Both the position numbers and the translations under genes were made by a program. A DNA stretch of 50,773 bases, taken from the IMG/VR virus record IMGVR_UViG_3300017913_002592, positions 1 to 50,773 of that record, one strand, 5' to 3'. The first letter of the stretch is position 1; each line of letters begins with the position of its first letter. This document shows positions 9,024-38,543 of the stretch, one piece after another. Origin of the DNA: a virus. Lineage: Duplodnaviria; Caudoviricetes. Under the pieces are notes generated by a model. The model had not been told where the DNA came from and ran no database searches. It saw only the letters and a program-made list of their open reading frames with translations.

Positions 9024-9914
9024 CTATCGCTTGAATTGGGATTGTACCAATTCGTTATGTAGTTTATCTTGAGCATAGCTCATTCGTCTCCCCCTACTCG
9101 ACCGAACTAGTGAACGAACAATAGTTCTATTATCTTTCAGAGTTATAGTCTCTTCGTACTTTGTTGTAGGTAGTGGTGCTGTGTAAGAACTAGGTAAAAC
9201 ATTCATAGCATCTAACGCAGCTGCTGCGGCATTGTCCGAAGCTGCAAGAGCAGACTCTACCCCAATTCCCAACATCTCTTCGAGAGACTCTGTTTCTGGA
9301 TCGTTTTCTCCGTCCTCTTTAACGCGCTCACGATCTTCTTGTTCTTCTTCCTCGTCCGCCATTACTGCTTTGCGGTCGATTTCATCTTGTATATAATCTT
9401 CATCAAGTGGATCTGCTACATCCGGTATTTCAGGGATCGGAGGTATGAATCCTTCACAGTCTGGAGAGGACTGTGGATTGAAGCAGGGGTCGAAACGAAA
9501 ACTATATAAAACGGTTGCGTCTGTTACAGAGCCATCGCCGTCTACTTCAATTGAACCGTCTCCAAAACGATTTCCTAAAATATTTTGCAGCGGAATACTT
9601 TTTACAATTGTATTTGGAGGTAATCCACTCCAATCATCTGCAGATCGAAATATGTATTCTCCGGGATTTTGTGCATCTTCATTTTGCACATATACCCACA
9701 TATCATCTTCTATATTCTTCACTGTTGTATAGCGGTAAAACACATTTGTAACTTCCAGCCCCATCTGCTGAGGCAGTACGTTAGTCATTACCCAATTATA
9801 CCCGTCTGATGCCGCATTGAGCGACTGTCCAAAAACTATATCAGAGGAGTAAGAGAAGGGCGAGTAAAGCAGCAATACCGCCGCCAGCAGCCATCGTTTG
9901 TTTCTCTGTATCAT
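9024..9914 (-). CDS. Secreted acidic protein
   Basis: Likely start MIQRNKRWLLAAVLLLYSPFSYS; DPCFNPQSSPDC motif; Glu/Asp-rich stalk. Confidence 0.7.
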   Translation of the reverse strand: MIQRNKRWLLAAVLLLYSPFSYSSDIVFGQSLNAASDGYNWVMTNVLPQQMGLEVTNVFYRYTTVKNIEDDMWVYVQNEDAQNPGEYIFRSADDWSGLPPNTIVKSIPLQNILGNRFGDGSIEVDGDGSVTDATVLYSFRFDPCFNPQSSPDCEGFIPPIPEIPDVADPLDEDYIQDEIDRKAVMADEEEEQEDRERVKEDGENDPETESLEEMLGIGVESALAASDNAAAAALDAMNVLPSSYTAPLPTTKYEETITLKDNRTIVRSLVRSSRGRRMSYAQDKLHNELVQSQFKR

Positions 9915-10428
9915 TTGCAAACTCTTCTTCCGCAGACTTCTCTGCAGGCGCTTCGCCATTGTCTATTGCCCATCCTGCTTTTGCTTCTTCTCCAATCATT
10001 CCATTATATGGGCAAGGTGTTCCAGCATGCATCATTGCATCAAAAACTCTTTCGTCTTGACACATCATAGATACGGCAGCAACTTTCATGCCCATATCAT
10101 AAAGTGTCTTTGCGTTTTTGAGTCTTTCGCAATTTTCATCAGTAAACTGCGTACCGGTCGAGATTCCAAGAATCTGAGTTTGAATCGCACCTGCTACTCC
10201 AAATGTACACAAGTCGGAGTTCGAGGTGTTAATCGTGGGAGATATTGCTGAAGGAGGGGGAGACTTTAGAGTTGTTGTAGTATTACCATTCGTAGTGATA
10301 GTGCTATCCGTAGTGCTTTCAGTACGAATTACTTCTTGCGCATTCGCTTCGGCTAGAAAAAGGCCAAAAAATATAATTATTATGCCTATAACTAAGCTTC
10401 TAATCAGACTTGCATCCAAGTTATCCAT
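9841..10428 (-). CDS. Exported Cys-containing protein with C-terminal Gly-Gly hydrophobic tail
   Basis: N-terminal signal/TM, Thr-rich linker, four Cys, ends AAGGGIAALLALLLLL. Confidence 0.75.
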   Translation of the reverse strand: MDNLDASLIRSLVIGIIIIFFGLFLAEANAQEVIRTESTTDSTITTNGNTTTTLKSPPPSAISPTINTSNSDLCTFGVAGAIQTQILGISTGTQFTDENCERLKNAKTLYDMGMKVAAVSMMCQDERVFDAMMHAGTPCPYNGMIGEEAKAGWAIDNGEAPAEKSAEEEFANDTEKQTMAAGGGIAALLALLLLL

Positions 10429-10524: not shown

Positions 10525-10599
10525 GAAATTTTTTTAAGCACCCTTTCGGATTTGACAAAAATACACAAGTTGTACGTGAGGGGTAGCGCGCGCGAACCA

Positions 10600-10618
10600 A
10601 ATGAGAATGAGTCTCATT
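10600..10618. promoter_or_regulatory. Fur-box-like 19-bp palindrome
   Basis: AATGAGA-ATGAG-TCTCATT, perfect 7-bp inverted arms, close to the gammaproteobacterial Fur consensus AATGAGAATNATTCTCATT. Confidence 0.6.
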
Positions 10619-10689
10619 ACCGCCCCCCCATACAGCACAGACCCCTGGCGGTCAAGCAATTTTTTGTGACATATTACCATTTTTATCTG

Positions 10690-10718
10690 TTGAGGTCATG
10701 GCTCAGGATGGGTATACT
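10690..10718 (+). promoter_or_regulatory. Putative first pre-early promoter (TTGAGG-17-TATACT)
   Basis: Correct spacing, upstream of a GAGGAGG SD. Confidence 0.5.
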
Positions 10719-10747
10719 AGGCACTTAATAAATGAGGAGGCTTTGCC

Positions 10748-10840
10748 ATGATTTGTCAACTGTTATTTGCTCTTTTTTGCGTCACTCTTTTTTCGGTTGT
10801 GGGCGGAATTTTAATGGCAAATTATTTTCACGATTTGTGA
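10748..10840 (+). CDS. 30-aa hydrophobic peptide
   Basis: GAGGAGG SD; MICQLLFALFCVTLFSVVGGILMANYFHDL. Confidence 0.55.
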   Translation: MICQLLFALFCVTLFSVVGGILMANYFHDL

Positions 10841-10850
10841 AATATTACCC

Positions 10851-10879
10851 TTTACTTTCTTGGGACATTCTGGGATAAT
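10851..10879 (+). promoter_or_regulatory. Putative promoter for the A2-like operon (TTTACT-17-GATAAT)
   Basis: Correct spacing; TG upstream of the -10. Confidence 0.55.
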
Positions 10880-10931
10880 CTTTTCATCGGTTAGGGGATG
10901 GGCCTCTGCCGAAAACACTAAGGAGGGCATT

Positions 10932-11243
10932 ATGCCTTACACTGAAAAGCAGGTTGCGGCACTGCAAAACGCCGCAAAGCAGCACGGTACGCTCAATGGG
11001 GAGCTTGCCGCCAAACTCGCAGCCGATCTCGGTCAGTCCAAGCGCAGCGTGATCGCAAAAATCAAGTCGCTGGATCTGCCCTACGCTGTAGCGGCAAAGC
11101 CCGTCAAGGGGACTCGCTCCACTAGCAAGGCCGAATATGTCGCGGCCATTGCCAAGGCACTTGACGCGGATGCGTCTACCCTTGCGGGTTTGGAGAAAGC
11201 TACCGCGCTTTCCCTTTCTGGCTTGTTGCAGGCGATCCGATGA
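10932..11243 (+). CDS. A2: T5 A2-like DNA-binding protein (copy 1)
   Basis: AAGGAGG SD; RSVIAKI...Y...KPVKG..SKAEYVAAIAK...LAGLEKA matches the recalled A2 pattern. Confidence 0.7.
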   Translation: MPYTEKQVAALQNAAKQHGTLNGELAAKLAADLGQSKRSVIAKIKSLDLPYAVAAKPVKGTRSTSKAEYVAAIAKALDADASTLAGLEKATALSLSGLLQAIR

Positions 11244-11440
11244 TTGTCTCGCTCGCCGCTTGGATCGGGGCCGTCTGCATGATGGCGGCCCCATTCATTA
11301 TAGACACCGACGCGGGCAAGCTTTTGGCGATCGCTGGATTGTCCCTCTTGACCTTGCAAGCTATAGCCACTCGGTGTTATAATCTGGTTTTACTTAACAT
11401 TGTCGGCATTGGAGGATATTTTTATGCGCTTTATCTATGA
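11240..11440 (+). CDS. Small multi-TM membrane protein
   Basis: 66 aa, about three hydrophobic segments; ATGA coupling. Confidence 0.7.
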   Translation: MIVSLAAWIGAVCMMAAPFIIDTDAGKLLAIAGLSLLTLQAIATRCYNLVLLNIVGIGGYFYALYL

Positions 11441-11897
11441 TTTGGACCACACTGTGATTGACTCAAGTCACCGTCAAGCTACTTTGTCAAATGGTGATCT
11501 TGACCTTGCACACTGGATTGAAAACAGCACACCCGAAAAGATAGCGGGAGACAAACTGCTACCGCTTGCGGATCACTGGAAAACTCAACGCGCTCGCGGT
11601 GCTGAAATCGTCGTCTGCACTGCTCGCGTTATGGGGGAAGCGGACTATCGGTTTCTAGCGGATCACGGACTGGTTTGGGATGGCATGATTTGCCGCACTG
11701 AGGGTGACAACTCTCGTGATGCGATACTAAAAGAGCGCGGTTTGCGAAACTATGCGGCTTGCGCTGGTATATCTTGGGCGCGATTTGTCCGGTTTTCTAT
11801 CATGCTCGACGATAACCAAACCGTGATACAGCACTTGACGGCTCGCGGACTGCGGGTTTATAATGCACTGGAATTAAACGCGAGGGCGGCAGCATGA
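11424..11897 (+). CDS. HAD-superfamily phosphatase
   Basis: GGAGG SD; YDLDHT (DxDxT), VVCTAR, K and MLDD motifs. Confidence 0.8.
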   Translation: MRFIYDLDHTVIDSSHRQATLSNGDLDLAHWIENSTPEKIAGDKLLPLADHWKTQRARGAEIVVCTARVMGEADYRFLADHGLVWDGMICRTEGDNSRDAILKERGLRNYAACAGISWARFVRFSIMLDDNQTVIQHLTARGLRVYNALELNARAAA

Positions 11898-12607
11898 ATA
11901 ACGCAAAAACTTTTCTGGTTCTGGACACTGAGACGGTCGGTCTTGAGGGTCACGTTTACGATATCGCCTGGGCGATTTGCAACAAGCGTGGTGAGGTTGT
12001 GCACACTCGCAACCATTTGGTGCGCGAAAACTTCACCAACCCCAAGCGCATGATGGGCGCATTTTATGCGGGAAAACTGTTTTCCCACTATGCGGAGATG
12101 TTGCAGGCTGGTGCTGTTACGCTGTTGCCTTGGGCTGAAATCTGCGCTCTGCTGGTTGCGGATTTCGAGGCTTTCGATGTTGATGTTGTTTGCGCTTATA
12201 ACGCGGGTTTTGACCTGCGCGTTATTCGCCAGACCCACGCTGATCTAGGCAATGGTGGGAAGGTATTGCCTCGCGCTTGTGATGTGCTGGACATCTGGCA
12301 ATTCGCCTGTGAAACCAAACTTTCACAAAAGCAATACCGCAACCTTGCACTCGCACAAGGTTGGGTATCGCCTGCTGGCAACATCAAAACGGGCGCGGAG
12401 TTTGCCTACCGTTTTGTTGGAGGTGACTGGGCTTTTGTCGAGGACCACACTGCGCTGTCGGATGTGTTGATCGAGGTTGCGATTCTGGCCGAGTGTTTCC
12501 GCCAGAAAAAATCTGTTCCCTACAATGTGGTAAACGGCCAGCCGTGGCGGTTGGTCAATCCGAAAGCTGGCGACGATGCCAACGTGCACGGCTCCAAGGT
12601 CGCGTAA
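11894..12607 (+). CDS. DEDDh 3'-5' exonuclease
   Basis: LDTET (ExoI), AYNAGFD (ExoII), HTALSD (ExoIII). Confidence 0.85.
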   Translation: MNNAKTFLVLDTETVGLEGHVYDIAWAICNKRGEVVHTRNHLVRENFTNPKRMMGAFYAGKLFSHYAEMLQAGAVTLLPWAEICALLVADFEAFDVDVVCAYNAGFDLRVIRQTHADLGNGGKVLPRACDVLDIWQFACETKLSQKQYRNLALAQGWVSPAGNIKTGAEFAYRFVGGDWAFVEDHTALSDVLIEVAILAECFRQKKSVPYNVVNGQPWRLVNPKAGDDANVHGSKVA

Positions 12608-12623
12608 TGTTCCACGTGGAACA
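12608..12623. promoter_or_regulatory. parS: parS centromere-like site
   Basis: Perfect palindrome TGTTCCACGTGGAACA, the Pseudomonas-type chromosomal parS. Confidence 0.8.
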
Positions 12624-12788
12624 GACCTGGGCCACGTCGCTACCTGCCTCCGGCCAGGCCGCGCTAAATTCGCTTGACATGGTGATTTTGGCGCGGCCGC
12701 GCCAGTAGTAGTACGACGACGATTTCTTTTGGTGGTACCTGGACGGGTGTGACCAAATTTGTGCGAATTGCTTAGTCTTTTTTAAGCT

Positions 12789-13115
12789 GCGCCGATTATA
12801 GTACAGTACCGATGCGATGTCAAGTGTTTTTTGCGGGTGCGGACCAAATTATTTTAATTTGTCTTGGTCTTGTAAAAGCGCCGCGCCGATTATACAGTAG
12901 TACGCCGACGATGTCAAGTACTTTTTGCACAATTCCCCAAAATAATTTGACGCGCAAGTCTCTCTTAGACCCCGTGCCCAACCCTGGTATTATATCATAA
13001 CCCAGGCGGGGTTGTCAAGGGTTTTTTCGATTCGGCCTGGAATTTGCGCCAAGTTATTCGACCCCGAGGCGGCGCCGATTATACAGTAGTATTGCGACGA
13101 TGTCAAGTACTTTTT
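12789..13115 (-). repeat. Array of four leftward consensus sigma70 promoters, three embedded in ~45-bp direct repeats
   Basis: -10/-35 at 12795/12823, 12889/12917, 12989/13018, 13078/13106; shared gcgccgattata...cgatgtcaagt. Confidence 0.85.
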
Positions 13116-13282
13116 GGGGTAATTCTGCATAATTTTAGAAGTAGAAGTCTGTGCGGGGTTGTGGTAAGATAAATTACGAAAATTTTGGACAATTGGAGAA
13201 AATAATTCTTGACACGCCGAGGTCGTGTGCGGCCCCCCGGAATTCGTTTGCGTTAACCTGGCGACCAATCCGGAAAAAGTTC

Positions 13283-13526: not shown

Positions 13527-13956
13527 AGTAAAGTACATAACAAAAGCAAAAAATACATGGACTAAGCGTAAGCGACACCTTGTACGTCATGCTTTTCACT
13601 ATGCTTTTCGTAAGATGAATCTCTACAAACTTGATGTGCATATTGATTTTCGCCTAGTAGGGACGCCTTATGCCTCAGGTTCATGCATAGATGCTGATGA
13701 TAAGTATATTGTGCATATTGACGGGTATCAAGACGAACACGATATAGTGGAAACTCTGTTCCATGAGTTGCAGCACGTAATTCAATACGCTATGGGCTAT
13801 TTGCGAGACGAGGACGAAACTCGAGTATACTGGCTGGGTAGTTGGTATACTGGCGATTTCCAAGATACTGACAGCTTAGAGTACTGGAATGCACCTTGGG
13901 AAGTAGAAGCTCGAAAGGTTGGGAAAAGACTTCAAAAGAATTACTACCAAAGTTAA
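13516..13956 (+). CDS. Zinc metallopeptidase-like protein (HExxH)
   Basis: ETLFHELQHVIQY and PWEVEAR motifs; probable TTG start after GGAG. Confidence 0.75.
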   Translation: MTTKVKYITKAKNTWTKRKRHLVRHAFHYAFRKMNLYKLDVHIDFRLVGTPYASGSCIDADDKYIVHIDGYQDEHDIVETLFHELQHVIQYAMGYLRDEDETRVYWLGSWYTGDFQDTDSLEYWNAPWEVEARKVGKRLQKNYYQS

Positions 13957-13964
13957 AAAAGTTG

Positions 13965-13993
13965 TTGACAAGATGCTAAAACTGTTCTATAAT
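13965..13993 (+). promoter_or_regulatory. Consensus promoter
   Basis: TTGACA-17-TATAAT. Confidence 0.85.
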
Positions 13994-14038
13994 ATATTTT
14001 CAAAAGTTGGGAAACAAACATTTTCGGGAGAAAAATTT

Positions 14039-14365
14039 ATGTCTGAAGCTACTAAAGTTGTAAACTACACTGACGAAATGGTTGATGCTATCGTTGCTGA
14101 GTACGAAGCTGCCCCAGTTCGTGACACTGTTGACGCGCTGGCTGAGCGTTTCGGCAAGACCCCTCGCTCTATCATCGCTAAGCTGTCTACGCTTGGTATC
14201 TACAAGGCTCCTGCTCGTGTCACTAAGACTGGCAAGCCCGTAGTTAAGAAGGAAGCTCTGGTCGCTGAGATCGTTGCTGCCGTCGGTGTTGAACTGCCTT
14301 CCCTAGTCAAGGCTAACAAGCAAGACTTGGAAGCACTCGTTGCAGCTCTTGGCTCTAGCAGCTAA
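14039..14365 (+). CDS. A2-like DNA-binding protein (copy 2)
   Basis: NYTDEM...RSIIAKLS.LGIY...KEALVAEI...SLVKA; codon bias of a highly expressed gene. Confidence 0.7.
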   Translation: MSEATKVVNYTDEMVDAIVAEYEAAPVRDTVDALAERFGKTPRSIIAKLSTLGIYKAPARVTKTGKPVVKKEALVAEIVAAVGVELPSLVKANKQDLEALVAALGSSS

Positions 14366-16127: not shown

Positions 16128-16436
16128 GTGAATTATACAAAAGATCAAACTGAGTATATGATCGAGCGGTACAAAACCAATCCATCAAGGAATACGGTAG
16201 AGGAGCTAGCAGATGAATTCAGTAAAAGTGTTAAATCAGTCATTGGCAAACTATCACGCGAAGGCGTGTATCGCCGCGAGGTCTATAAGACTAAGGCTGG
16301 CGAGAACCCTATTACTAAAGTGGAGATTGTTGAAAGTATTGCCGAATGTTTGGGACTTGAGAGTGAGTCTCTGGCTGGTCTCGAGAAAGCTCCAAAAGCA
16401 ACTCTCAAAACAATCGAGAAAGTCCTATCAGAGTGA
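16128..16436 (+). CDS. A2-like DNA-binding protein (copy 3)
   Basis: NYTKDQ...KSVIGKLSREGVY...TKVEIVESIA...LAGLEKA. Confidence 0.7.
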   Translation: MNYTKDQTEYMIERYKTNPSRNTVEELADEFSKSVKSVIGKLSREGVYRREVYKTKAGENPITKVEIVESIAECLGLESESLAGLEKAPKATLKTIEKVLSE

Positions 16437-18815: not shown

Positions 18816-20435
18816 TTAGAACAAACAAATATCTTGTTCTTCTAGTTCTAGTTCTACTGGAGTAGAGAATTGAATACCGTGCTCCATTTCATGTAACTGA
18901 CTGATTATCCAACGAGTACGAAGTATACTTTCTGCATTATTTGTAGGAGGGGGTCGCTGCTCTATAGGTTCTAAACAGAAACATCCACCCACCGTCCCAA
19001 GGCGTACAGACTGGCCAGTTTCCGGTATTTCACATCGTGCGTTGTAATCCGAAAATCTTCCTGTGGGTAAGTCTGCATACGACATGATGCTTCCGTATCC
19101 TCCCCACAATCCTTCGTAGTTTTCGTTGTCTGACTGGGGGTTATAGCCTGATAAGTTATACCCGAATGAGTATTCAAAGATACCAGGTTGATTCGCGTCT
19201 CTGTACTCATGTTGTGCCCCTAGTAGGTGACCTACTTCATGTGCAAATGTTTCATGTGCACGTTGGTAATATCTCGTAGTTGCATTCTCTTGGAAAGTGC
19301 TATTATGAAAACACTGAGTAATTCCTCTTGTTTTATCAATTCCTCGTGTTGCATCTAAGTTTGCAACTCCACAAGCAATAGGCTCTTCTGGCTTCTTCTT
19401 AAATAGAAAAGCTAAATCTGCTTCAGCTTCTCTTTGCCAATCATCTAATCCAGTAAATTCATATCTAGCATTAAAAAATGCAGCATATTGTCTGTATAAA
19501 TCTCCTGGAGCTACATCTACCATTTTGATACCCGCCACTCTAACCAAGGTATAAGTACCCGATAGCATATACATATGGTTTAATTCAAATACTTGCTTAT
19601 TTACAAACTCTTCAACTGTCATACCATCACGATCTTCCTCAGTAATATTTGTATCGAACACAATAAGCATATCTATGATAGCTCTTCCTGCGTGTTCTTC
19701 TCGAGGTTGATACGGAAAACTAACAGGGGTTCTTTGTTTTACACCATCACAGGTCATGTAATCATATCTAGAATCCCCAGTATCGGTTCTAGTAGTTGGG
19801 CACTCCTGGGGTATGGTCATTTGCGTAAAACAAGTTTGATCTAGGTGCACAGTACGTTCAGTATATGTACCACCCTCCCCATCTGCATAGTCCTGTAACC
19901 TATCTTCGGGCAGTAGGTGATTTATAGCTTCAAAATGAGAATCGTATTCTTCTGGCGTGAGTGTATCAGCACAGTATGCTTCGCCTAGAGCAGTGCCTTC
20001 TTCAGGATACGGTCTCCAACCACAGTCTTCTGAATTAGTTTCTACTATCTCGGTATACTCCCCGCCTTCACCGTCAGCAAAGTCTTGAACCTTATCAAAG
20101 TCGTCCAGGTTATTTAAAGTATTAAGTAGATTTAAAAATTGGCCCTGAGTAGCATTTGCACAATATGGATCGTTGAGAGGGGTGCTAAAGACAGGAGGGG
20201 GCTCATAGCCACACTGCTCGGAAGGATCCTCTACTGTTTCAGTGTAGGTTCCACCACTGCCATTGTGGTAGTTTTGAAGAAGGGCATATCCATCGCAGTA
20301 GGTAGCACCATCAGTGGTGCCAGATGCAGGATAAGAGGAGGTAGCTGTTACAGGGGTCTCAACGGGGTCGGAAGATCCTCCCCCGCTGCACGCAGTTAAT
20401 ACTAGAAAGGGTAGTGCTCTATAAAATATCTTCAA
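18816..20435 (-). CDS. Lipoprotein metzincin (reprolysin/M12B-like) metalloprotease
   Basis: Lipobox LVLTA-C, HEVGHLLGAQH zinc motif, SIMSY Met-turn, three Cys-containing N-terminal repeats. Confidence 0.8.
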   Translation of the reverse strand: MKIFYRALPFLVLTACSGGGSSDPVETPVTATSSYPASGTTDGATYCDGYALLQNYHNGSGGTYTETVEDPSEQCGYEPPPVFSTPLNDPYCANATQGQFLNLLNTLNNLDDFDKVQDFADGEGGEYTEIVETNSEDCGWRPYPEEGTALGEAYCADTLTPEEYDSHFEAINHLLPEDRLQDYADGEGGTYTERTVHLDQTCFTQMTIPQECPTTRTDTGDSRYDYMTCDGVKQRTPVSFPYQPREEHAGRAIIDMLIVFDTNITEEDRDGMTVEEFVNKQVFELNHMYMLSGTYTLVRVAGIKMVDVAPGDLYRQYAAFFNARYEFTGLDDWQREAEADLAFLFKKKPEEPIACGVANLDATRGIDKTRGITQCFHNSTFQENATTRYYQRAHETFAHEVGHLLGAQHEYRDANQPGIFEYSFGYNLSGYNPQSDNENYEGLWGGYGSIMSYADLPTGRFSDYNARCEIPETGQSVRLGTVGGCFCLEPIEQRPPPTNNAESILRTRWIISQLHEMEHGIQFSTPVELELEEQDICLF

Positions 20436-22231: not shown

Positions 22232-22654
22232 ATGACTAAGCAAATGATGAATATTAGTGACTTTCATAAATTCTTTTTGGGATTCGATCGCATTGATCCC
22301 GATTTCTTCTCAAATGCTCCGCTAGCGGGGTATCCTCGATACAATGTGCTGAAGGTAGGAGATGATGGCTATCGTGTAGAAGTCGCAGTTCCTGGCTGGG
22401 AAAAGGATGATATTGAAATCACCTTGCACAAATCCGAACTTCGTATCGAAGGAAAACAAAAACAAGAAGTAGAAGACGACGAAGAATTTATTTATAAAGG
22501 ACTAAGTGGTAAGACTTTTACGCGAGTATTTAAAGTCGGACCCAACATTAAACTGGATGGGGCGTTTATGAAAAACGGTCTGTTGTGCATTGAGTTGCAT
22601 GATGAAGTACCGGAGACTCAGAAACCGAGAGTTGTAGAGATTTATGACGCGTAA
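22232..22654 (+). CDS. hsp20: Small heat-shock protein (Hsp20/IbpA family)
   Basis: YPRYNV...YRVEVAVPG...F.R.F...NGLL.IEL..EVPE..KPR. Confidence 0.92.
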   Translation: MTKQMMNISDFHKFFLGFDRIDPDFFSNAPLAGYPRYNVLKVGDDGYRVEVAVPGWEKDDIEITLHKSELRIEGKQKQEVEDDEEFIYKGLSGKTFTRVFKVGPNIKLDGAFMKNGLLCIELHDEVPETQKPRVVEIYDA

Positions 22655-27558: not shown

Positions 27559-27587
27559 TTGACAACTTCCTTATATTGAAGTATAAT
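27559..27587 (+). promoter_or_regulatory. Consensus promoter
   Basis: AAAAATAGTTC-TTGACA-17-TATAAT. Confidence 0.85.
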
Positions 27588-27692
27588 ATATTTTCAAAAT
27601 TAAGGAAGGCTATGTCTGACCGATTTTATCAGCAACAACTTAAATCACTGGGTGTATGCCCAGGTTCAACCAACAAAAAGAGGAAACGTAGA

Positions 27693-28058
27693 ATGGCATG
27701 GGATGACGACAAAAAAGCTCAAGCGGTAGAAATGTACGAAGAGCAAGACCCCACACCTGAAACCAGCATGGAAATCGTAAAAGCTATCGCAGAGGAGCTA
27801 GACGAGTCACCCAACGGTGTTCGTATGATTCTTACCAAAGCTGGAGTATATGTAAAAAAGAGCCCGGCCTCTGGTTCCAAGCCTTCATCCAGTAATGGTA
27901 CTGGGGGCGGTCGTGTATCTAAAGCAGCAGCTCAAGAAGCTCTTATCGCAGCTCTGTCTGATGCAGGTCAAGAAGTTGACGAAGATGTAGTATCAAAACT
28001 TACTGGCAAAGCTGCTCAATACTTTGCTGGTATTATTACGGCTATCGGCGCAAACTAA
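27693..28058 (+). CDS. D3: T5 D3-like DNA-binding protein
   Basis: SMEIV..IA...PNGVRMILTKAGVYVKK...SKAAA...SDAG...KLTGKAA. Confidence 0.8.
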   Translation: MAWDDDKKAQAVEMYEEQDPTPETSMEIVKAIAEELDESPNGVRMILTKAGVYVKKSPASGSKPSSSNGTGGGRVSKAAAQEALIAALSDAGQEVDEDVVSKLTGKAAQYFAGIITAIGAN

Positions 28059-32767: not shown

Positions 32768-33070
32768 ATGGGACTTTACTATGGATCACTACGGCACACA
32801 ACATCTGGACGACGTAAGCAAAGCACTAAGAAAAGGGTTAATAAATCTTTTTCCAAAGTTGTTAGAGCTGCAGCAGTATCAAGCAGCCCGTACCGAAGAG
32901 AAACACCACAGTACCCCTCAGCTCCCGATACAACTGGAGTTGCCGCTAGAGTGGAGCCTCCACAATACACAGGAACGCTTGTTAAAGGCATCGGAACCAT
33001 GCACAAGTCCAATGCCGTACCTGTTATAGACGAACAACAAATGAAAGAACTAGCGAGTATGCGGCGTTAA
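32768..33070 (+). CDS. Basic conserved phage hypothetical protein
   Basis: AGGAG SD; YTGTLVKGIGTMHKSNAVPV...ASMRR. Confidence 0.75.
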   Translation: MGLYYGSLRHTTSGRRKQSTKKRVNKSFSKVVRAAAVSSSPYRRETPQYPSAPDTTGVAARVEPPQYTGTLVKGIGTMHKSNAVPVIDEQQMKELASMRR

Positions 33071-33501
33071 TGAAAGTTTTAAAAAAGACTGTGCATCGCA
33101 CGATATTACATTTAGAAAAAGCCCTGCTGCTATTTATAGTTGCAGGTACCGTATGGGCGGCAGGGTTTGATATTGTAGGTATGTTCAGTTCCCAGGGTAA
33201 GATGGCCCTGGCGGATTTATTTTTGCTATTTATATACGCAGAGATATTAGGTATGGTAGGCGCATTTTACAATGACCATCGTATTCCAGTTACACTGCCT
33301 ATCATTATTGCTATTACTGCATTAACGCGAATGATTGTACTAACAACAAAAGGTTCCGAGCCAGAATATATATTGTATGAAACTACTGGCATCTTTATAC
33401 TCGCAGTTAGTGCTCTTATACTTAGCGCAAAAGATAGATTAAGTTTAGCGAAATTAAAATTAATCGAAGGAGAGAAAGATGGCCTTAGCAGCCGAACTTG
33501 A
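33070..33501 (+). CDS. PsiE-family membrane protein
   Basis: Four TM; DLFLLFIYAEILGMV..FY..HRIPV..PIIIAITALTR. Confidence 0.8.
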   Translation: MKVLKKTVHRTILHLEKALLLFIVAGTVWAAGFDIVGMFSSQGKMALADLFLLFIYAEILGMVGAFYNDHRIPVTLPIIIAITALTRMIVLTTKGSEPEYILYETTGIFILAVSALILSAKDRLSLAKLKLIEGEKDGLSSRT

Positions 33502-37341: not shown

Positions 37342-38001
37342 ATGGCTAGAAGAAAAAAGACTCTTGCGGGAGCAAATTTAGACTTACAAGAAATCGAGCC
37401 TCTCACTAAAAATCAAGTAATTGCATTTGAGAGCGATAAAAACTTAATGCTACATGGCGTAGCGGGCACAGGTAAGACTTTTATATCTTCATATCTTGCA
37501 TTTGATGATATGGCAAAAGGTATATATGAAAAACTAGTAATTATAAGAAGTGCCGTTCCCACTAGAGATATTGGCTTTCTGCCTGGGAATGAAAAAGAAA
37601 AGGCTTCAGTATATGAAGAGCCTTACAAAGATATTTGTATTGAACTTTTCCAGCGCGGAGATGCTTATGAAATACTTAAAACAAAAGGATTAGTTCATTT
37701 TATGACTACTTCCTTTATTCGAGGAGTTACTCTGCGAAATGCAGTAATACTCATTGACGAATGTCAAAATATGAGTTTTCATGAGCTAGACTCAATTATT
37801 ACTAGAATAGGGCAAGAGTGTAGAGTTATCTTTTGTGGTGACTTTCGACAAGCCGATTTAGCAAAAAATGGCTTAAAAGATTTTGTAAGAATCTTAAAAG
37901 CTATGAATGAATTTGACTTTGTTGACTTCGATATAAAAGATATTGTACGAAGTGACTTTGTTAAGCAGTACATCACAGCAAAAACGGACTTAGGATTATG
38001 A
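37342..38001 (+). CDS. phoH: PhoH-family ATPase
   Basis: GVAGTGKT, IGFLPG, RGVT, IDECQN, TRIG, GDFRQ.D, DIVRS. Confidence 0.93.
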   Translation: MARRKKTLAGANLDLQEIEPLTKNQVIAFESDKNLMLHGVAGTGKTFISSYLAFDDMAKGIYEKLVIIRSAVPTRDIGFLPGNEKEKASVYEEPYKDICIELFQRGDAYEILKTKGLVHFMTTSFIRGVTLRNAVILIDECQNMSFHELDSIITRIGQECRVIFCGDFRQADLAKNGLKDFVRILKAMNEFDFVDFDIKDIVRSDFVKQYITAKTDLGL

Positions 38002-38543
38002 ACGAAGGAAAACGAGTACCCTCAGTAGTTTTCAAAATACGAGTCCCCGATACGTCTGGCGCAGGGCGAGAAAACCCTTTTGTATGGAAAGATTCACCTA
38101 CTTCTGAATTTTTTCAAAGCAAAAGAGTTTTAGTAATCTCCCTGCCAGGCGCTTTCACGCCAACTTGTAGCACCTATCAAGTACCAAACTTTGAAAAGAA
38201 CTACAACAAGATTAAAAACCTGAATATTGATGAAATCTATGTAATTTCTGTCAATGATGCTTTTGTTATGCGGAAATGGAGAATTGACCAGAATGTAGAG
38301 AAAATCAAGTTTATTCCAGACGGTAATGGGCAGTTTACTCGACATATGGGTATGCTAGTGGATAAGTCAAACCTCGGATTTGGTATGCGCTCTTGGCGTT
38401 ATGCTATGGTAGTAGACCATGGTATTATCGAAAAGATGTTTGTAGAGCCGGGGTATTCCGATAACGCATCGAAAGACCCATATGGTGAAACTTCTCCAGA
38501 AAATGTCATTAACTACTTAGAGGGTGCCCCACGGCGTCTATGA
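37998..38543 (+). CDS. Peroxiredoxin (Prx5 type)
   Basis: PGAFTPTCS, SVNDAFVM, DGNGQFT, RSWRYAM. Confidence 0.93.
   Translation: MNEGKRVPSVVFKIRVPDTSGAGRENPFVWKDSPTSEFFQSKRVLVISLPGAFTPTCSTYQVPNFEKNYNKIKNLNIDEIYVISVNDAFVMRKWRIDQNVEKIKFIPDGNGQFTRHMGMLVDKSNLGFGMRSWRYAMVVDHGIIEKMFVEPGYSDNASKDPYGETSPENVINYLEGAPRRL

Follow-up and report, generated by a model that had tools for sequence, protein, structure and literature searches.

A host-type parS site in the likely terminal repeat of a marine T5-like phage and its possible use of host ParB

A perfect chromosomal-type parS palindrome lies in the likely terminal repeat of a marine T5-like phage, and its sequence pattern, placement and conservation indicate that host ParB would very probably load on it. 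The DNA analysed here (the window) is the whole 50,773-nt stretch of IMG/VR record IMGVR_UViG_3300017913_002592. The wider reading, that through this host-type parS the ParA of the host positions the single incoming genome and retains it, is put forward tentatively, with somewhat less than an even chance of being right.

The parS site and its setting in the phage genome

Sixty of the 175 listed open reading frames (ORFs), chosen as likely genes, were scanned for protein families. They comprise a T5-like gene set (a split NAD ligase, D5, DNA polymerase A, an SbcCD-like pair and spanins) together with a T5-type small terminase, A2 and Dmp, which identifies the phage as T5-like (Demerecviridae-like); the nearest cultured records are T5-like phages with only ~40–51% identity. 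No integrase was found among the 60 ORFs, and the T5-like gene content suggests a lytic, virulent phage. The spanin genes point to a Gram-negative host cell. No tRNA genes were found in the window. All 20 sequencing runs listed with part of the region are marine or viral metagenomes, and contigs of four were examined. A host assignment from genome-bin matches was rejected, as the five short contigs (683–5756 bp) sit in MAGs of unrelated taxa and are best taken as binning contaminants. The PsiE homologue encoded by the phage gave matches in only 2 of 401 sampled Pseudomonadota genomes, at 40–44% identity. Besides PsiE, the window encodes PhoH, a redoxin, Hsp20 and a metallopeptidase (33070–33501, 37342–38543, 22232–22654 and 18816–20435 for the set as a whole). 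The metallopeptidase is reprolysin-like and belongs to the early region, in which it runs in the opposite orientation (18816–20435, minus strand). Four A2-like (phrog_1725) paralogues are present in the window (10932–11243, 13919–14365, 16128–16436 and 27576–28058).

The 16-mer TGTTCCACGTGGAACA occupies positions 12608–12623, and its first base is located directly 3´ of the TAA of the ORF at 11894–12607 (237 aa). It is the only exact match (16/16) in the whole window to the chromosomal-type palindrome pattern TGTTNCACGTGNAACA. The next-best matches, three in number, have 3 mismatches each and are at chance level (expected mean 2.16), and ~2e-4 exact matches are expected from base composition. 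The sequence-only reading had described a perfect site abutting the exonuclease stop codon, very unlikely to arise by chance, and both statements hold. Contigs from runs X1, X4 and X5 span the site with no other letter at any of its bases; although run X1 may be the source of the window record itself, these contigs come from two studies, and their agreement excludes an assembly error. The 16-mer is identical to the P. putida consensus listed in PMC7022226 (Table 1 therein) and fits the near-universal chromosomal parS. The site therefore fits many bacteria, and the earlier view of it as a sign of a Pseudomonas-like host is not sustained.

The same reading had seen no parAB and had proposed a check for parB in the rest of the genome. 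A six-frame search of the window record, which is 52% complete (CheckV), gave no match to ParB_N (PF02195) or to the ParA-type AAA_31 family (PF13614). Neither family was found in any of five long relatives, one of them 91% complete, and no complete ParABS cassette with parA and parB in cis was found in the window record or these five relatives. The combination known from phi29-type phages, namely a virulent phage with a host-type parS and no ParB of its own, is therefore seen here, in a 52%-complete record and with the lytic lifestyle taken from gene content.

Table 1. Features of the pre-early block and likely terminal repeat (window coordinates).
Feature	Coordinates	Strand	Basis
Likely direct terminal repeat / pre-early block	10574..13237	+	Contig depth, GC, end homology; boundaries about ±30 nt
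Predicted left genome end, with Fur-box-like palindrome at 10600–10618	10574..10632	+	End homology to phi 3 and Ceto; Fur-like match
A2-like DNA-binding protein	10932..11243	+	phrog_1725, E 6e-06; 42% over 57 aa to T5 A2, pairwise E 2e-05
Small ORF, 66 aa, without family match	11240..11440	+	ORF list, family search
Dmp-like deoxynucleoside-5´-monophosphatase, T5-type pre-early	11424..11897	+	36% over 162 aa to phi 3 Dmp, pairwise E 8e-23
DEDDh-type 3´-5´ exonuclease-like gene, stop codon abutting parS	11894..12607	+	phrog_192, E 1e-11; RNase_T look-alikes
parS palindrome, chromosomal type, perfect; predicted host-ParB loading site	12608..12623	.	Pattern match, PMC7022226 Table 1 consensus, conservation
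Conserved GC-rich palindromic landmark	12686..12705	+	17–64 nt 3´ of parS in 25/32 representative sites
Promoter-like sites (four, each 12/12 to the sigma-70 consensus) oriented towards parS, within repeated units	12795..13106	-	Position comparable to T5 injection-stop region
Conserved motif, right edge of high-depth block	13209..13237	+	Conservation in relatives, depth

The parS is part of a block with 52–53% GC, compared with ~40% around it. Near-identical contigs of run X1 have depths of 58.5, 62.3 and 51 over 10601–13228 and 20.9–25.1 on either side, a step of 2.1–3.0-fold at the block edges that supports a repeat but does not prove it, as the depth of contigs does not measure copy number and relatives may inflate it; runs X4, X5 and X7 lean in the same direction. 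Positions 10597–10632 match the left end of phage phi 3 (first 62 nt) at 29 of 35 nucleotides, and Ceto has a motif similar to the left end of the window at its own terminal-repeat boundary. Taken together, the depth step and the end homology make a terminal repeat of ~2.65 kb likely. In the predicted repeat, ~2.0 kb separate parS from the left end and 0.6 kb from the right end, and with a repeat at either terminus each virion genome would contain parS twice.

The arrangement resembles that of T5, in which a terminal repeat with A2-like and dmp genes is followed by a repeat-rich non-coding end bearing a host-protein site. The T5 injection-stop region (iss) is annotated at 9140–10149 of a 10219-bp terminal repeat, and its DnaA boxes have been proposed as docking sites for host proteins (bioRxiv 10.1101/866236). 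Unlike T5, the repeat is ~2.65 kb rather than 10.2 kb, at most one weak DnaA-box-like match is present, and A1 was not found; T5, in turn, has no intact parS. The A1 gene is required with A2 for second-step transfer in T5-type injection. No A1 homologue was found in any of five clade records, three of them at least 90% complete, with a query that matches 1135 cultured phage records, and two-step injection is thus unproven for this phage. In the accessible text of the same preprint, two-step injection is itself assumed, on the grounds of A1, A2 and iss. The earlier description of the region as putative first-injected DNA depends on the end homology with phi 3 and Ceto and is weakened by the lack of an A1 match in the five clade records. 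The pre-early block of the clade instead has the DEDDh exonuclease-like gene, in which D11, E13, D107, H185 and D190 are invariant across 25 homologues; no close homologue was found in cultured phages (best 33%).

From parS to ~13240, the block consists of repeats and promoter-like sites, without genes of known family. The four minus-strand promoter-like sites are antisense to the pre-early operon and have no known gene downstream; they might act as an RNA-polymerase trap or an injection brake. Their position raises the alternative that ParB spreading tunes or silences nearby pre-early promoters and ties phage timing to the ParB/CTP state of the host. The parS is indeed flanked by the end of the pre-early operon on one side and, on the other, by these four promoters pointing towards it, and overproduced ParB2 silenced promoters up to ~1 kb away by spreading (PMC3688505). 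However, this silencing took a 10–14-fold excess of ParB2 (PMC3688505), and the nearest upstream pre-early promoter-like sites are 0.7–1.9 kb away; we regard promoter control as improbable. The sequence-only reading had further listed a Fur box. A Fur-like match is present at 10600–10618, but within the conserved genome-end motif, and it may not be a Fur site. Fur-box-like palindromes often occur ~30–50 nt 5´ of parS (as in six relatives), Fur-box-like arrays occur in some parS-less relatives, and similar repeats are found in the T5 iss.

Conservation of the site in marine relatives

Related phages were scanned for parS at the syntenic position, as the sequence-only reading had suggested. Of the 60 informative relatives in viral and genome collections, 38 have the site, as do 51 of the 61 metagenome contigs that were informative among the best 80 of 318. 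The first set comprises 77 relatives found through the exonuclease (72 viral and 5 from genome bins); within 2 kb 3´ of this gene, 38 carry parS with ≤1 mismatch, 22 are without it and 17 end too early. Counted as 95%-identity clusters with the window included, 25 of 40 informative clusters have parS. In the metagenome set, which shares some contigs with the first, 10 close relatives are without parS at an intact landmark, 17 contigs stop short of the landmark, and two were dropped (look-alike match, contig ending before the usual place). Whole-record scans showed exactly one site in each of 10 positive records and an intact site in none of 9 negative records, and the parS-less relatives include three records at least 90% complete that were scanned whole. 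On the tree, from which four short or interrupted rows were left out, the parS-less rows do not form one branch; the pattern takes 11 changes, 9 of them forced by well-supported branches. A collection-wide parS scan (~10,000 stretches, estimated) mixes host, plasmid and prophage DNA and was kept out of all counts.

The 16 bases are retained while the surroundings change. Among 32 representative sites, the flanks reach ≤0.56 bits per position while the site holds, an invariance to which, at the 14 fixed positions, the choice of sites at ≤1 mismatch itself contributes. In the 2-kb regions 3´ of the exonuclease (80 kb in total), 21 sites match exactly and 6 have one mismatch, while two-mismatch sites are absent; the other 393 kb of the same loci contain neither exact nor one-mismatch sites. 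Neighbouring genes also turn over, and the exonucleases are only 56–74% identical to that of the window. Captured host DNA persisting as a neutral relic, or chance, would agree with the patchy presence on the tree, but not with 16 bases conserved amid such turnover, and hardly comes into consideration. In many relatives, a gene is often inserted between the exonuclease and parS, which stays beside the landmark; its motif is that of what we take to be a polyphosphate-kinase-2-like protein. In four parS-less relatives, the gene order after the pre-early block is unlike that of the window, suggesting a rearranged subgroup.

Variation within the site follows the tolerance of ParB. The two unconstrained positions of parS carry only C/T and G/A in all 32 sites, and all 64 arms are GTTCCAC, GTTTCAC, GTTCCAT or GTTTCAT, which are four of the six variants enriched in ParB ChIP of P. 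aeruginosa (PMC5961200). In the metagenome set, 103 of 104 arms are within the ParB-enriched variants, the exception being GTTCTAC, so that variation is confined to ParB-tolerated half-sites in the viral set and, with this one exception, in the metagenome set. An alternative is that the palindrome is a site for a phage protein, or a hairpin for injection stop or packaging, and that its likeness to parS is coincidental. Palindromes abound in the T5 injection-stop region (bioRxiv 10.1101/866236), positions 5 and 12 are complementary in 29 of the 32 sites, and several DNA-binding proteins are encoded by the phage. Nevertheless, 12 of the 32 sites are imperfect palindromes, the hairpin is weak (−3.6 kcal/mol) and is not called as a terminator, and the coincidence would be needed twice, for parS1 and for the Vibrio parS2 described below, each in the matching host group. 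This explanation is accordingly very unlikely, and the pattern of variation fits a protein site better than a DNA structure. As far as such patterns can tell, the marine parS is selected but accessory, with sister lineages lacking it. No substitute centromere was found in the 22 parS-less loci, in which neither a matS-like match nor a shared palindrome was detected, and parS2 is absent from all 78 marine loci.

Centromere type and host in cultured T5-like phages

Sixteen cultured T5-like records, chosen to span genera, were scanned whole for parS and for NTTTACANTGTAAAN, the centromere parS2 of Vibrio chromosome II (PMC7022226, Table 1 therein), which is restricted to vibrios and photobacteria (PMC3141006). 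Exact parS2 was observed in 6 of 6 Vibrio T5-like phages, which are kin and do not represent six independent events, and in 0 of 10 others. Every copy is intergenic within the A2-A1-dmp pre-early block, although the genes flanking it in 70E37.6 are unnamed and were judged by size. River4, pVp-1, Ceto and VspSw_1 have parS2 pairs, 23–24 nt from start to start, just 3´ of A2, and two phages have them again just 5´ of A1. The universal parS occurs as an exact match only in phi 3 (KP280063.1), twice per terminal repeat. At 2934–2996 of this phage, between A1 and A2, parS1 is followed by a parS2 5 nt later and by a second parS2 29 nt further on. Neither site is intact in the 8 enterobacterial-type phages, among which Eos is counted although its host is not recorded; T5 and EPS7 contain only core-broken matches. 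The Enterobacteriaceae have no chromosomal par genes (PMC7022226, section 4). Neither of two Aeromonas T5-like phages, one with a partial record, carries either site. No ParB_N match was found in the 11 cultured phages scanned for it. Searches of cultured phages with 30-nt blastn queries served as leads only, short matches being biased by the flanks. A match of centromere type to host is thus seen for the cultured Vibrio relatives only.

Exact parS cores without a ParB_N match also occur in Pseudomonas phages that are not T5-like. There is one in phiPsa374, in its terminal repeat, six in vB_PpS_SYP, five of them in the first 7.7 kb, and four in XD2; these phages were picked because they match and give no frequency.

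The suggestion of the sequence-only reading that the phage loads host ParB is strengthened by the selected host-type parS, the lack of a detected partition gene, the likely terminal-repeat location and the host-matched type in cultured kin. It had also included SMC as an effector. In that form, ParB would recruit SMC, and SMC translocation would pull in the remaining genome. ParB loads SMC in several bacteria (PMC7022226), parS adjoins injection-stop-like repeats, and a clade without an A1 match may transfer its DNA otherwise than T5. An essential entry step, however, should persist in close relatives, some of which lack the site. Moreover, Vibrio has MukBEF and is not known to have Smc-ScpAB, and the Vibrio phages use parS2 and keep A1. 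SMC pulling is therefore unlikely as a function shared with the Vibrio relatives and, for the marine site itself, highly improbable.

The number of sites bears on another alternative, in which replicated phage copies draw ParB off the host origin by titration, so that segregation or replication in the host stalls. Replication based on oriCII was disturbed by ~20 ectopic parS2 copies in a plasmid assay, but not by 10 (PMC3141006, section 10), and the terminal-repeat location would double the dose. Yet titration needs no fixed position and a decoy should favour arrays, whereas almost every marine relative with parS has just one copy (as in all 10 positive records scanned whole), tied to one landmark. 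We consider titration distinctly unlikely.

Possible roles of host ParB and relation to known systems

In the reading that we favour, the left end near 10574 would enter first, so that parS would be inside the cell after ~2 kb. Host ParB, as ParB-CTP clamps, would bind parS and spread soon after entry, and the ParB-coated end would engage ParA on the nucleoid and be held or moved like an origin. In this way, the genome would be placed and, should division of a slow-growing host come first, would pass undivided into one daughter cell. ParA engagement with origin-like holding has, given ParB loading, close to an even chance. It is preferred because ParAB can position a plasmid that has a single parS (PMC7022226, section 4), because phi29 uses Spo0J for segregation, and because both centromere types share ParA as a partner. 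Against this positioning role stand the 22 of 60 informative relatives without parS, the 10 close metagenome relatives without it at an intact landmark, and both Aeromonas T5-like phages without either site type. In addition, the Vibrio phages encode A1, which in T5 is annotated as involved in host DNA degradation, and loss of the nucleoid by A1-type degradation would cut ParA-based positioning short.

Alternatively, host ParB may coat and compact the entering end and its pre-early genes against host or phage nucleases, with ParA unneeded. The sites lie among pre-early genes beside nucleases (the exonuclease here, A1 in the Vibrio phages), and unrelated lytic Pseudomonas phages place parS near their ends (the phiPsa374 repeat; the first 7.7 kb of vB_PpS_SYP). 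On the other hand, T5-like phages of enterobacteria manage to shield this DNA with no help from ParB. ParB clamps slide and are lost from free DNA ends, and they would fall off the entering end. Coating is thus unlikely, though it is an alternative to be taken seriously beside ParA-linked positioning.

The closest precedent is that of phi29 and Nf, virulent Bacillus phages in which a host-type parS is used with host Spo0J (ParB) (PMC2731898). phi29 has five sites and relies on spore entrapment, whereas here there is one site per terminal repeat and no sporulation context, in a ~97-kb T5-like phage with spanin genes (Gram-negative host) whose relatives switch to the Vibrio parS2. The likeness to chromosomal ParABS lies in the 16-mer, which equals the listed P. 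putida consensus, and in its variants, which are ParB-bound arms (PMC7022226); the phage site differs in that no parA or parB was found in cis and in that it is carried by a lytic phage and not near a bacterial oriC. SGI1 is a mobile element reported to use the partition system of another replicon, the parABS of an IncC plasmid (PMC10954446), but it is an integrative element relying on a helper plasmid, rather than a lytic phage relying on a chromosome. The accessible text of the T5 preprint (bioRxiv 10.1101/866236) has no mention of parS or ParB, and that of a Hi-C study of PAK_P3 (PMC13510664) only mentions host parS. No report of host parS or parS2 in T5-like phages was found among titles and abstract openings, in a search that covered few subscription papers. 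Among the papers found, only those on phi29-type phages and spore entrapment demonstrate that a virulent phage employs a host centromere. The principle known from phi29 and Nf would here extend to phages of Gram-negative hosts, with a host-matched centromere in the cultured Vibrio relatives.

On balance, we lean towards a general reading in which T5-like and unrelated lytic Pseudomonas phages have repeatedly placed a host centromere in first-entering DNA, with the sequence swapped to suit the host ParB, and in which ParB acts, so far unrecognised, as an early host factor of general importance to lytic phages that infect Gram-negative bacteria. Three host-matched forms would then be represented, namely the universal parS, the Vibrio parS2 and both side by side, each forming a borrowed partition complex within the first kilobases. 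As the marine T5-like clade is abundant and keeps parS, and Vibrio T5-like phages keep parS2, this is testable in cultured phages and hosts. The finding bears on how T5-like phages handle the DNA that enters first, and hosts of uncultured phages might become easier to predict from whether they carry the site and in which type. If the reading is true, ParB would join the host factors that decide the fate of phage DNA in the first minutes.
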